48,186 bases of DNA from Actinomycetota bacterium. GTDB taxonomy: Bacteria > Actinomycetota > Acidimicrobiia > Acidimicrobiales > CADCSY01. Below the pieces are notes generated by a model, which was not told where the DNA came from, did no database searches, and saw only the letters and a program-made list of their open reading frames with translations. Both the position numbers and the translations under genes were made by a program. Shown one piece after another: positions 3,426 to 27,221 of the stretch; position 1 is the first letter of the stretch, and each line of letters opens with the position of its first letter. The stretch covers positions 1-48,186 of the forward strand of contig JAHWKL010000004.1 in assembly GCA_019347915.1 (NCBI GenBank). The letters are read 5' to 3'.

Positions 3426-3429
<4 letters not shown>

Positions 3430-5744
3430 GCTCCGGTCGCCGCCGGCAGCCGCTCGTACAGGGTGGTGCGCTGCTCCAGTCGGCGGCCCAGCGGCTCGAC
3501 CCAGTGGCGGAACTCCCCCTCGGTCATGCGCTGGCCGTGGGAGGCGCCGGCGGCCCGGGAGATGTTCTCGTCCAGCAGGGTGCCGCCCAGGTCGTTGGCG
3601 CCGGCCCGCAGGGCTTGGCGGGCGCCCTCCCGCCCCATCTTCACCCACGACACCTGCACGTTGTCGATCAACCCGTGGTAGGCGATGCGGCCCACGGCGT
3701 GCATGAGCAACGCTTCCCGGAAGGTCGGCCCCCGGCGGCTCCGGCCCTGGAGGTGGATGGGCGCGGCCATGTGCACGAAGGGCAGGGGCACGAACTCGGT
3801 GAACCCGCCGGTCTCCTCCTGCAGGGCGCGGGTCCGCAACAAGTGGCGGGCCCAGTGTCGGGGCCGCTCGACGGAGCCGAACATGATGGTGATGTTCGAG
3901 CGCAGCCCGATGCCGTGGGCGGTGCGGTGGGCCTCGAGCCACTGCTCGGTGTTCACCTTGTCGGGGCACAGGACGGCGCGCACGTCGTCGTCGAGGATCT
4001 CGGCGGCGGTGCCGGGCAGGCTTCGCAGCCCGGCGGCGGCCAGGCGTCGCAGGTAGTCGGCCAGCGGCTCACCCAGGCGCCGGGCGCCCTCGGTCACCTC
4101 CAGGGCGGTGAAGCCGTGGAGGTGCACGCCCGGGGTGACCTCGGAGACGGCCTGGATCACCCGCAGGTAGTACTCACCGTCGAAGTCGGGGTGGATGCCG
4201 CCCTGGAGGCAGACCTCAGTGGCGCCCTGGGCCACCGCCTCCACCGCCCGGGCCTGGATCTCGTCGATCGACAGCAGGTACGGCGCACCCCGCAGGTTCA
4301 GGGACAGGGGCCCCTTGGAGAAGGCGCAGAACCGGCACTTGAAGGTGCACACGTTGGTGTAGTTGATGTTGCGGTTGGCCACCCACGTGACCGTGTCGCC
4401 CACCGCTCGGGCCCGCAGGTCGTCGGCCACCTCGGCCACCGCCTCCACCTCCGGGCCACGGGCGGAGAAGAGGGTGACCAGCTCGTCCTCGGCCGGCTCC
4501 TGGCCGGCGGCCACACCATCGAGCACCTCGCTGACCGCCGTCCCTCCCTTCGACGTTCTTTGTCGACTGGACCCCCGCTGCGGAGGGTCATCCGACAAAG
4601 AACGAGGGGGGCGGGGCAACAGGAGGGGCGGTGGGTGCTCGGCGCCGGCGTGCCAGCGGTCGTCCCGGGCCAGGCCCTCGGCGTCACTGTGGTCGAGCAC
4701 CGCCGCTCGTAGTGACGGGTCGAGCCAGCGCTCCGGCTCGGTCACGTACTCGGGATAGGCGGTCAGCCGGGGGGCGAGGGTCAGCCCCCGCGCCTCGGTG
4801 GCCACTCGCAGTCGCTCCACGTCCGGCCAGGGCCGCTCGGGGTTGACGTGGTCGGGCGTGACCGGCGACACGCCGCCCCAGTCGTCGATACCGGCGTCGA
4901 GGAGGCGGCCGAAGTCGTCGCTCAGGTTGGGCGGCGCTTGGAGGTGGACGTCGGCCGGCAGGACCAGACGGGCGGTGGCCACGGTCCACAGCAGGTCGTC
5001 GGCCGGGCACGGTGGCGTCCCGTGCATGGCCGTGCCCGCCTTGGGCAGGAAGTTCTGGACGATCACCTCCTGCACGTGCCCGTGGCGGCGGTGGGCGGCG
5101 GCGATGGCCTCGATGGCCCGGAGACGATCGCCCCGCGACTCCCCGATGCCCACCAGCACGCCGGTGGTGAAGGGAATGGCCAGCCGTCCGGCTGCCTCCA
5201 GCGTGGCCAACCGCCGCTCCGGCGCCTTGTCCGGAGCCCCCCGGTGGGCGGGGAGATCCGGGGCCAGCGACTCCAGCATCATCCCCTGGGACGCCGAGAC
5301 GCGGCGCAGGCAGGCGAGCTCGTCGGGGAGGAGGGCGCCGGCGTTGGCATGGGGCAGCAGGCCGGTCTCCTCGACCACCAGCCGGCACATGGCGGCCAGG
5401 TAGCCCACCGTGGTCTCGTGGCCGTGCTCGGCCAGCCAGCGGCGGGCGACCGGGTAGCGCAGCTCCGGGCGTTCGCCCAGGGTGAACAGTGCCTCGTGGC
5501 ACCCCGCCGCCGCCCCGGTGCGAGCGATGGCCAGCACCTCGTCGGGGGACAGGTAGGGGGAGGCGACGTGCGCCGGGGGTTCGGCGAAGGTGCAGTAGCC
5601 GCAGCGGTCCCGGCACAGCCGCGTCAGGGGGATGAACACCTTGGGCGACCAGGTCACCCGGTGGCCGTGGGCCGCCGCTCGCACGCCGACGGCGGCGGGC
5701 AACAGCTCGTCGGAGGCCAGGGCGAGGAGCTCGGCGCCGTCCAT
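3426..5744 (-). CDS. fbiC: Bifunctional FO synthase (CofG-CofH fusion), F420 biosynthesis
   Basis: Two radical-SAM CxxxCxxC motifs (CRDRCGYC, CTFKCRFC), VTWSPKVFIPLT, DWGGVSPVTPDHVNPERPWP, NRNINYTN, DLGGTLLDENISRAAG. Confidence 0.95.
4554..4604. repeat. Palindromic element within fbiC coding sequence
   Basis: Perfect 12-bp inverted arms CGTTCTTTGTCG (4554-4565) and CGACAAAGAACG (4593-4604) around an inner GACCC-CCGC/GCGG-A-GGGTC stem. Confidence 0.8.
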
Positions 5745-27025: not shown

Positions 27026-27221
27026 GCTCGCTTCGCTCGCGGAAGGACTCGGTGCCGCCTGCGGCGGCGCTCAGTCCCGCTCCGTCCGGCCAAGCCGGCT
27101 GCGCCGGCGGCCGGACGGCGGATTATCGCCTGGCGAGGCTGCGGAGGCCGCCAGGCGGAGCAGCGACGAGGACTGGTCCAGCTCCGTGCGAACGGGCGCC
27201 GGCGGATTATCGCCGGCGCAA
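27026..27221 (+). repeat. REP/BIME-like modular intergenic repeat, copy 1
   Basis: 27026-27130 matches the reverse complement of 39833-39937 (6 mismatches in 105 bp by hand); 27147-27164 matches 39941-39958; 27201-27221 matches 39826-39846. Confidence 0.9.

Follow-up and report, generated by a model that had tools for sequence, protein, structure and literature searches.

The gene fbiC (cofGH), which encodes the bifunctional FO synthase of coenzyme F420 biosynthesis, contains in an uncultured soil actinobacterial lineage a palindrome that is translated in frame between the CofG and CofH domains of the enzyme. This raises the question of what the palindrome is, how it came to lie within a protein-coding gene and whether it serves that gene. 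The locus is located in the window analysed here, i.e. the whole stretch of 48,186 nt (contig JAHWKL010000004.1 of assembly GCA_019347915.1, positions 1 to 48,186), which is part of the source genome, a metagenome-assembled genome (MAG) of 2.70 Mb in 244 contigs, 86% complete and with 72% G+C, referred to as G000. A first-pass annotation of the window had described perfect 12-bp arms with a nested inner stem, locally more AT-rich than their surroundings and read in frame at the domain junction, and had proposed either a mobile palindrome that adds protein sequence or an mRNA structure that pauses translation. We find that the palindrome belongs, as a solo copy, to a class of small hairpin repeats confined to a single family of the Acidimicrobiales. 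The existence of a dispersed hairpin repeat with an in-frame copy in fbiC is certain, and a nuclease-like gene flanked by the same hairpin may be the keeper of the repeat.

The fbiC palindrome is a copy of a dispersed hairpin repeat

The properties ascribed to the fbiC palindrome were confirmed. The two arms are perfectly complementary and enclose a nested inner stem at the positions given in Table 1, and the 51-nt core coincides exactly with codons 381-397 of the interdomain linker, within the peptide PPRSLSDDPPQRGSSRQRTSKGG (FbiC residues 379-401). When the whole palindrome was scored in an inverted-repeat search, arms of 25 nt with 80% complementarity were obtained, the inner 27 nt forming an imperfect stem-loop. 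The element is indeed more AT-rich than its surroundings: the G+C content of an arm is 6/12, compared to 72% genome-wide, and 9 of the 17 core codons end in G or C (counted by hand), compared to a G+C content at third codon positions (GC3) of 0.93 over the whole fbiC frame.

Within the window, the 12-mer CGTTCTTTGTCG was found only as the two arms, with 0.06 matches expected by chance and two matches in none of 100 shuffles, in agreement with the annotation that this window holds no second copy; 33 further copies are located elsewhere in the genome. The genome search for the arm that had been suggested as a check showed that the arm is not unique, with 44 exact arm matches in G000 and 34 paired copies, all of them with an offset of 39 nt between the arm starts (27-nt spacing) and 15 of them with perfect arms. 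A profile search with nhmmer added one clear diverged copy and two fragments to the 34. In the G000 consensus, CCACCG and CGGTGG enclose a loop of 3 nt. A short variable stretch separates each of them from the adjoining arm, and the arms are bordered by a C-rich run on the left and a G-rich run on the right. The inserted DNA usually measures 70-100 nt if the C-rich and G-rich stem extensions are included.

The distribution of the repeat was assessed in 41 related Acidimicrobiales genomes, using the arm pattern with up to two mismatches and the reversed pattern as a control. One of these genomes, G007, is unpublished, and nothing is concluded from it alone. The pattern was present in 15 of the 41 genomes, i.e. 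in G000, in 14 of the 24 others of the same family and in none of the 16 from other families of the order, with 1 to 41 copies per element-bearing genome, and the reversed pattern gave no match in any of the 41. Exact matches in a collection with one genome per species (about 185,000 species) amounted to 52 loci, all of them in MAGs; 49 carry the label Acidimicrobiia, Acidimicrobiales or Actinomycetota, and the other three belong to one MAG labelled Acidobacteria. No exact match to the arm pattern was found in viral contigs, and a permissive Rfam scan of positions 4400-4750 returned only microRNA-type noise with E > 1.

Conserved arms and a covarying inner stem

In an alignment of 82 copies from several genera, the columns of the 12-nt arms were invariant or at least 90% conserved, with the ends CGTTCT...AGAACG, and the inner stems differed by lineage, reading CCACCG/CGGTGG in G000 and GCAGTGC/GCACTGC, GCTACC/GGTAGC or a GACGTC-type sequence elsewhere. 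Over 79 distinct copies, 85.2% of the cells of a 24-pair hairpin were paired, compared to 76.1% in column shuffles, none of 500 of which reached the observed value, and to 36-51% in a control with slid partners on the same copies. Changes on both sides were seen in 14 of the 24 hairpin pairs, almost all within the inner stem. Among 14 orthologous copies of G000 and G001, the arms were 96.4% and the inner 27 nt 88.9% identical, with flanks of 86-96% identity by BLAST. These comparisons suggest that the inner stem-loop is free in sequence yet constrained to pair. Covariation in a DNA palindrome cannot separate a role of the hairpin at the DNA level from one at the RNA level, and the strand asymmetry of G-U versus A-C pairs, as a test for selection on RNA, offered too few informative pairs.

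The insertion in fbiC is old and the enzyme remains intact

The host gene codes for a full-length CofGH protein, scoring 1032.3 bits against the NCBIfam model NF006687 for bifunctional CofGH (cut-off 1018), and Pfam detected Radical_SAM in two stretches (best at residues 460-626) as well as CofH_C. An AlphaFold2 model based on an alignment of 22 rows showed two confident domains with a predicted template modelling score (pTM) of 0.84; residues 361-402 were without predicted secondary structure, and the predicted local distance difference test (pLDDT) was below 50 at residues 383-400. According to this model, the insert would be a disordered, hydrophilic loop that leaves the frame of the enzyme intact.

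The alignment of FbiC orthologues, another of the suggested checks, showed that the linker is not of the same length throughout. The stretch from LLP to AVAEV comprises 7 residues (e.g. GTPRAGG) in most orthologues, namely in G003, G005, G006, G009, G010, G013, G014, G019, G020, G022 and G025, which belong to the genera g2, g4, g5, g8, g9, g10, g12 and g13, and 25-28 residues including the element in G000, G001 and G002, i.e. in all three g1 species. Outside of g1 and g3, the linker of the orthologues is about 18 residues shorter. The g3 members G015, G024 and G041 have the element at this position of fbiC too, read in an identical frame, in a decayed form in the case of G015. In G002, decay of the arms has left CGTGGTCTGTCG and CGGCGAAGAAGG, with three mismatches per arm (counted by hand), and the frame is open. 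Each of the fbiC copies bears the inner stem typical of its own genome. The insertion is thus old, being common to all three g1 species and found in g3 with identical position and frame. In a tree of FbiC calculated without the linker columns, g1 and g3 formed a clade with an SH-aLRT value of 94 (not starred). A single old insertion with later homogenisation and two insertions at a permissive site are both possible.

Two other fbiC genes deserve mention. In G004 (L012), the linker has an excess of 8 residues, DTVAETSSRRWSGRA, encoded with a small GAGACCTCC/GGAGGTGGAG hairpin and without arms, which may be the remnant of a deleted copy. In G021, the gene is split across contigs C59 and C162 (L122 and L121) with the break in the linker, and C162 begins with the left arm and half of the inner stem joined directly to the downstream fbiC codons; many copies in G021 are located at contig ends, and the split is probably an assembly break or a mis-join at the repeat.

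Gain and loss of copies

The two sister species G001 and G002 together hold 26 copies, 17 of them at sites that are filled in G000 too and three at sites with a decayed copy or a different repeat in G000; the remaining six had no counterpart in G000 that could be used, since there was no hit, a single matching flank, a contig edge or a repeated region. A clean contrast of filled and empty sites was obtained in two cases. At C55:20309, G000 has 74 extra nt between TAGCGGC and TACCGG, the site is empty in G002, and the element is absent after that gene in all 14 further genomes examined. At C50:2382, G000 has 102 extra nt and both G001 and G002 are cleanly empty. Together with the family of 34 copies and the shorter linkers of the orthologues, these sites support the part of the first-pass annotation that proposed a mobile palindrome adding protein sequence. 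Downstream of the orthologue of the C55 site in G011 (L206), a different long palindrome, CTTGTGGCGGTT...AACCGCCACAAG, was found at the equivalent position past the stop codon.

Fourteen sites of G000 were compared in G002, where three were intact, two decayed or reduced to a remnant and nine absent or replaced. G002 is losing the repeat family. Two of seven further sites filled in G000 but not in G002 are the pair bracketing a nuclease cassette (see below) that is missing from G002. At one site, C57:3172, G000 has about 170 nt including the hairpin, where G002 (C46:9305-10869) has some 1.5 kb of different sequence that contains open frames; structural change seems to be concentrated in intergenic regions with the repeat.

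The C/T-rich flank at positions 4529-4553 is probably part of the inserted DNA in fbiC. Like the flank of the recent C50 insertion, which it resembles, it starts with CTGACC, and the two ranked 15th in similarity among 2244 flank pairs, a likeness that is no more than suggestive. The idea that the C50 copy derives from the fbiC locus was not retained beyond a hint, since G-rich low-complexity sequence scores alike elsewhere. CTGACC/GGTCAG was likewise rejected as a defined end of the element: GGTCAG occurs in 16 of 68 flanks, and this is largely the TGA stop codon of a neighbouring gene, which often abuts the C-run.

Most copies lie near gene ends and few are translated

The genomic context in G000 was evaluated with a crude GC3-based gene caller, which gave 1774 genes covering 71% of the genome, and calls of copies 'inside a gene' were corrected by the positions of Pfam domains. 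In this way, the inside-gene status of the copies on C53, C86, C115 and C132 and of C243:8556 was overturned, as these are located upstream of the real starts. Among the 24 copies classed as intergenic, 13 are between convergent, 10 between tandem and one between divergent genes, compared to 259, 897 and 225 such intervals genome-wide. For 20 copies, a gene 3' end is at most 93 nt away (median 16 nt), so that the repeat is dispersed, mostly extragenic and near gene ends. A canonical intrinsic terminator is excluded for the fbiC copy, since neither strand has a U tract past the hairpin (on both, a T-rich arm lies before the inner hairpin and an A-rich one behind it) and the search of positions 4200-5000 found no terminator-like site; no promoter site was found in this range either. 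We infer that the intergenic copies might act as a stabilising hairpin at mRNA 3' ends or have another role at the level of the host.

Only four of the 34 copies in G000 are translated, two within genes and two as C-terminal tails. The second in-frame copy besides fbiC (C184:3418-3468; locus L173:1619-1669) is located in the linker of a fusion of GmhA (SIS) with HldE (PfkB plus cytidylyltransferase), where it is read in the same frame as in FbiC, as RSLSDLPPPRWSSRQRT. It is found at the same site in G001 and G002, and the fusion protein of G015 has an element-free linker of 17 aa. The C-terminal tail of a SURF1-family protein is encoded by the element at C8:2546-2596, 24 residues past the end of the Pfam domain, and at C200:37117-37167 it encodes the last 15 residues of the apolipoprotein N-acyltransferase Lnt, the stop codon being provided by the mutated right arm CGATAAAG. 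Among 60 copies fetched from other genomes, two had coding-like flanks on both sides in one open frame, and both were fbiC linkers.

A nuclease-like gene is flanked by the hairpin

Two of the copies in G000, C243:7521 and C243:8556, bracket a single gene on the minus strand (C243:7591-8517) that codes for a protein of 309 aa. The resulting hairpin-gene-hairpin unit of about 1.1 kb is absent in G002, where the two neighbouring genes abut. We searched the 41 genomes with the 309-aa protein and scanned the fetched loci for the hairpin. Among the close homologues (52-100% identity) with both flanks visible, the hairpin was present on both sides at six of six loci in six genera (G000, G024, G013, G020, G009 and G010), each time in the arm or inner-stem variant of the respective genome, and a homologue at a contig edge in G003 had it on its one visible side. 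The upstream hairpin is located about 40-110 nt before the start codon, its end being about 40-85 nt from the matched start, and the downstream hairpin 2-49 nt past the matched end. The canonical hairpin was seen at none of 12 other loci; among the distant homologues (29-48% identity), 9 of 12 had other palindromes of about 50 nt at their flanks, and several of these retain the CGTTCT...AGAACG ends, e.g. in G019 and G018. Since G000 shares the gene to the left of the unit with G003 and the gene to its right with G024, the unit looks like a vertically inherited resident.

A second nuclease-hairpin pair exists in the same genome. A paralogue in G000 that is likewise AbiEi_4/Vsr-like (C144:14683-15570, within the unit C144:14559-15636) has on either side a copy of another hairpin, 52 nt long and with the ends CGTTCTGGCCCC...GGGGCCAGAACG. 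These two copies are 94% alike, and eight further copies of this hairpin are found on other contigs.

At least seven copies of the element were found in nine genomes, seven of which have a close homologue or fragments of one. G002 (five copies) and G015 (one copy) are the only element-bearing genomes of the 41 without any homologue, and the fbiC copies are decayed in both. As related genomes are not independent samples, the association of gene and hairpin carries no P-value.

The partner suggested by the first-pass annotation, a RAYT/TnpA-REP gene, was not detected: a search for the Y1 tyrosine transposase of RAYT proteins (PF01797) gave no match in the 15 element-bearing genomes, and control genomes gave matches. 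Within the comparison set, PF01797 matched only in G017, G023 and G027, each of them with 0 copies of the element; instead, the search for a partner turned up the AbiEi/Vsr-like flanking gene. Similarly, a small GIY-YIG gene of the Ssn type flanked by repeats was not found in the eight element-bearing genomes scanned, each of which had a single GIY-YIG match in an open frame of 484-1086 aa that we interpret as UvrC.

In Pfam, the 309-aa protein matched AbiEi_4 and, with 35.7 bits and thus below the curated cut-off of 38.2, REase_MTES_1575, a family defined as a 'novel Vsr-REase' in the text of PMC3710099; no NCBIfam model matched. The AlphaFold2 model (alignment of 12 rows) had a pLDDT of 90.1 and a pTM of 0.85. 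With the N-terminal 200 residues, Foldseek found the AbiEi antitoxin 6y8q (E = 1.2e-5) and Rv2827c (1zel), and with the C-terminal 100 residues the catalytic domain of the homing endonuclease I-Bth0305I (3r3p; template modelling (TM) score 0.76, root-mean-square deviation 2.9 Å), as well as Vsr (1cw0), DUF559 (3hrl) and the nuclease domains of PvuRts1I and AbaSI. The sequence profile pointed in the same direction (3hrl, E = 2e-4; 3r3p, E = 0.008). D239 and E250 were invariant in 12 homologues and D252-G253 at least 90% conserved. The Vsr-like fold and the conserved acidic residues place the C-terminal part among the Vsr/DUF559-type PD-(D/E)XK nucleases, with catalysis predicted; Vsr, DUF559 and the intron homing endonuclease are placed in one group in the part of the classification by Steczkiewicz et al. 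2012 that covers them (PMC3424549). Judging from the model, the protein is an AbiEi-like winged-helix DNA-binding module fused to a Vsr/homing-endonuclease-like nuclease domain. The G000 unit does not contain an AbiE pair, as a single gene lies between the hairpins and no AbiEii toxin gene stands beside it; AbiEii elsewhere in the genome was not searched for.

Proposed mechanism and alternative explanations

Taken as a whole, we consider the most likely explanation to be that the fbiC palindrome is a family-specific solo hairpin that landed in the FbiC linker and that the hairpins are driven by a unit with an AbiEi/Vsr-like nuclease. Copies are normally found a few nucleotides past stop codons, often between convergent genes, and the fbiC copy landed in the disordered linker between CofG and CofH. 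As the core has 17 codons and is open in that frame, it is merely translated into an unstructured loop, with the enzyme left intact. The hairpin is at the same time the terminal repeat of the ~1.1-kb hairpin-gene-hairpin unit, whose AbiEi/Vsr-like protein may recognise the conserved arms. By nicking or cutting the hairpin DNA, this protein may drive copying, gene conversion or loss of solo hairpins; its action would keep the arms uniform within a genome, and loss of the gene would let the repeats decay. Such a mechanism would have its counterparts in RAYT with REP/REPINs and in Ssn with NTS repeats. A partnership of nuclease and hairpin is probable. It is also possible, although we lean slightly against it, that this is the third independent partnership of a nuclease with its own hairpin after RAYT-REPIN and Ssn-NTS, and the first in Actinomycetota, in which a resident AbiEi-helix-turn-helix/Vsr-like nuclease maintains the 51-nt hairpins, each paralogue having its own family, homogenised by cutting and repair. 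Such homogenisation, if true, would account for the perfect rare-codon arms even of the fbiC copy, in its essential reading frame, and for the genus-specific inner stem of this copy over inter-genus timescales.

Several observations weigh against this explanation. At the level of sequence, the link between gene and hairpin is an association only, and it has exceptions: G001, with 21 copies, is without a visible close homologue, the orthologous site being a run of N; G011, with eight copies, has only homologues of 45% and 40% identity; G021, with 36 copies, has only three homologue fragments; and G010 has the gene yet only four copies of its variant hairpin, two flanking and two solo. Target-site duplications are inconsistent, with GGC or shorter (1-3 nt) at C55 and CG at C50, and the remaining five of the seven sites mentioned above, filled in G000 but not in G002, are replacements and not clean insertions. 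Two FbiC trees that retain the surviving linker columns do not unite g1 and g3. All genomes are MAGs and the repeats break contigs, and the gene calls underlying the context statistics are crude at 71% genome coverage. Finally, AbiEi proteins are autoregulating antitoxins, and the flanking hairpins could be operators, not mobility ends.

The last point leads to an alternative in which the hairpins are cis-elements of the host, i.e. operators or 3'-end sites bound by an AbiEi-like regulator, that spread in another way, e.g. by recombination or with an unassembled DDE insertion sequence in the manner of a miniature inverted-repeat transposable element (MITE). The N-terminal module does resemble the AbiEi antitoxin, the upstream hairpin is in the position of an operator relative to the start codon, the bias towards gene 3' ends is strong (13 convergent, 10 tandem and 1 divergent versus 259, 897 and 225) and the arms look like terminal inverted repeats. 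An operator, however, does not explain the hairpin past the stop codon of the gene as well, which was seen in every genus examined, nor that each paralogue has a hairpin family of its own which is dispersed too; the acidic residues of the nuclease domain are conserved, the repeat decays where the gene is missing, and G000 showed no longer element bounded by these ends. We therefore regard the cis-element explanation as unlikely.

Explanations that turn on fbiC itself fared less well. A regulatory hairpin specific to this gene might pause the ribosome so that CofG folds before CofH emerges, or uncouple the two halves by processing or attenuation. Consistent with this, the RNA fold of positions 4541-4615 is strong (-42.3 kcal/mol; z = -4.6 versus dinucleotide shuffles, none of 200 being as stable), the element sits exactly at the domain junction and is kept in several species, and one inner-stem pair, A-U in G001, has become U-G in G000, a combination that pairs on the mRNA strand only. 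When the codons were resampled according to the usage of the gene with the 25-residue peptide fixed, however, as in the codon-shuffled control that had been suggested, the redraws had a mean of -32.1 kcal/mol (sd 5.7) and 137 of 2000 were at least as stable as the native -41.5 kcal/mol (z = -1.65). Among the other 75-nt windows of the fbiC mRNA, one was stronger at -44.5 kcal/mol and the next about equal at -41.4 kcal/mol. The stability of the hairpin is thus unremarkable for this peptide in this genome, which is one of the three outcomes that the first-pass annotation had listed as refuting; the other two, a linker of equal length in the orthologues and an arm found nowhere else in the genome, clearly do not hold. 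Moreover, the same element stands at 33 other, mostly intergenic places, the arms in G002 have decayed with the frame still open, most orthologues are insert-free and there is no U-tract terminator. The proposal of a translation-pausing mRNA structure is left unsupported by these results, and a regulatory hairpin specific to fbiC is highly improbable. We also think it improbable that the 17-residue peptide RSLSD-PP-R-SSRQRT is a selected linker module of multidomain enzymes, such as a phosphorylation, protease or docking site. One and the same frame recurs in FbiC linkers from six species, in GmhA-HldE linkers from three and in the C-terminal tail of Lnt, and it is the hydrophilic one; but such a bias is expected from purifying selection alone, as the other frames give hydrophobic or Cys-containing peptides. 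Translation concerns only 4 of the 34 copies, the central residues vary freely among species, the pLDDT of the peptide in the model is below 50, and the rare AT-ending codons are those expected of foreign DNA rather than of a selected peptide. A chance palindrome or an assembly artefact, finally, might be suspected in a MAG of 244 contigs, the more so as G+C-rich DNA forms many weak inverted repeats, but this is refuted by the 44 exact arm matches in the genome, the lack of any match to the reversed control pattern in 41 genomes, the sister species that share the site and the independent soil metagenome contigs from three studies that span both junctions of the element within fbiC. Its probability is practically nil.

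Comparison with known systems

Demonstrated keeper enzymes of dispersed hairpin repeats are documented in two cases in the sources consulted, RAYT (PMC3116915, PMC3733652) and Ssn (PMC11893778). The repetitive extragenic palindromic (REP) sequences and REPINs that are associated with RAYT transposases, as presented in the relevant sections of Bertels and Rainey 2011 (PMC3116915) and Di Nocera et al. 2013 (PMC3733652), are similar to our repeat in being short dispersed palindromes, mostly extragenic and by gene ends. In both systems, a single-copy gene, presumably the one that serves the repeats, is flanked by them and, in our case, vertically inherited at a conserved locus, and the repeat population is smaller where the gene is absent. 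There are clear differences, however. The element-bearing Acidimicrobiales genomes are without a Y1 (IS200/IS605-type) transposase in 15 of 15 cases, and the flanked gene codes instead for an AbiEi-like module with a Vsr-like PD-(D/E)XK-type nuclease domain. REPs are defined there as hairpins of 20-40 bp with a terminal GTAG or CGTC tetranucleotide tag on one side (PMC3733652), whereas our hairpin is without such a tag and symmetric, with CGTTCT...AGAACG at its ends. Furthermore, it is one long hairpin with a stem of up to 24 pairs, unlike the two inverted REP hairpins that make up a REPIN. Actinobacteria are mentioned nowhere in the text of PMC3733652.

Rickettsia palindromic elements (RPE) are described in a section of a MITE review (PMC10969869) as repeats of ~150 bp in Rickettsia that are very often located within open reading frames. 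They share with our repeat the in-frame position in unrelated enzymes, where the palindrome is read through as an extra peptide and the protein is preserved. According to these descriptions, RPE are set apart by their size of ~100-150 bp versus a core of 51 nt (insertions of 74 and 102 nt), a third of the RPE length, and by sequence family, the exact arm pattern having been found only in Acidimicrobiia-type MAGs, although no direct comparison with RPE sequences was made. Our repeat is mostly extragenic and differs further in that two of 34 copies are internal to genes and two are C-terminal tails and in that a candidate partner gene is present. MITEs, as outlined in the same review, are small, non-coding and structured, with inverted termini comparable to our 12-nt arms and with presence/absence polymorphism between relatives. 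The target-site duplications at C55 and C50 are inconsistent with each other, other sites being replaced and not cleanly filled, and the only longer unit with these ends carries the AbiEi/Vsr-like gene and no known transposase; DDE families were not searched, and MAGs are often without assembled insertion sequences. With 51-100 nt, the element is also shorter than is usual for MITE families.

A parallel in organisation is provided by the Ssn (GIY-YIG) single-strand nucleases and their NTS/SRM hairpin repeats, in which, in the part of Chenal et al. 2025 that concerns us here (PMC11893778), a small nuclease gene is flanked 5' and 3' by a genome-dispersed hairpin and the same flanking test was applied. 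The nuclease superfamily and the phylum are different, and our repeat is unlike the NTS consensus as printed there. With I-Bth0305I and the Vsr/DUF559 clade, as far as PMC3424549 describes it, the 309-aa protein shares the fold of the catalytic domain (TM 0.76) and, by context, the character of a nuclease of a selfish element. The flanked gene is, in contrast to that of I-Bth0305I, without intron or intein context, and its N-terminal module is AbiEi-like. We found no published description of a palindromic repeat of Acidimicrobiia or of a link between hairpins and MTES_1575/DUF559-AbiEi proteins, subscription journals being outside the search.

By itself, the fbiC copy is a new example of an in-frame palindromic insertion, in an uncultured soil actinobacterial lineage, and the interdomain linker of the FO synthase for coenzyme F420 evidently tolerates at least 17 extra residues. 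We know of no role assigned to the numerous AbiEi + DUF559/Vsr-like proteins of Actinobacteria. If the association reflects function, these proteins would gain a substrate, a repeat family that breaks MAG assemblies would be accounted for, and a sequence-specific hairpin nuclease with several natural specificities would be at hand.

Features of the locus and a third repeat family

The coordinates of the features discussed above are compiled in Table 1.

Table 1 Features of the fbiC locus, with positions in the window.
Feature	Position	Strand	Remarks
51-nt palindromic core	4554..4604	none	minus strand gives 17 in-frame codons, FbiC residues 381-397 (RSLSDDPPQRGSSRQRT)
Left 12-nt arm CGTTCTTTGTCG	4554..4565	none	each column invariant or conserved to at least 90% among the 82 aligned copies
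Right 12-nt arm CGACAAAGAACG	4593..4604	none	perfect complement of the left arm
27-nt inner stem-loop	4566..4592		variable, lineage-specific sequence; pairing maintained by compensatory changes across the family
C/T-rich flank (plus strand)	4529..4553		minus-strand translation SKGGTAVS
G-rich flank (plus strand)	4605..4616		minus-strand translation PRPP; lengthens the hairpin jointly with the C/T-rich flank
fbiC/cofGH, bifunctional FO (F420 chromophore) synthase	3426..5744	minus	772 aa, frame intact
CofG domain, residues 31-349	4698..5654	minus	TIGR03550
Interdomain linker, residues 350-418	4491..4697	minus	residues 361-402 without predicted secondary structure; length differs among orthologues
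CofH domain, residues 419-765	3450..4490	minus	TIGR03551

Besides the 51-nt and 52-nt hairpins, G000 contains a third repeat family with the palindromic motif GCGGAGTCCGCCAGGCGGAGC, which gave 52 matches at up to three mismatches. It is located in the window at position 27141, at C11:3246-3515, C60:1097-1202 and C61:4587-4767 and at more than 40 other places. Short tandem arrays, with repeats every 83 or 150 nt or so, are frequent among them. In two cases of orthologous intergenic regions (C60 versus G001, and C46 of G002 versus C57:799), the motif is found where the sister species has the 51-nt hairpin.

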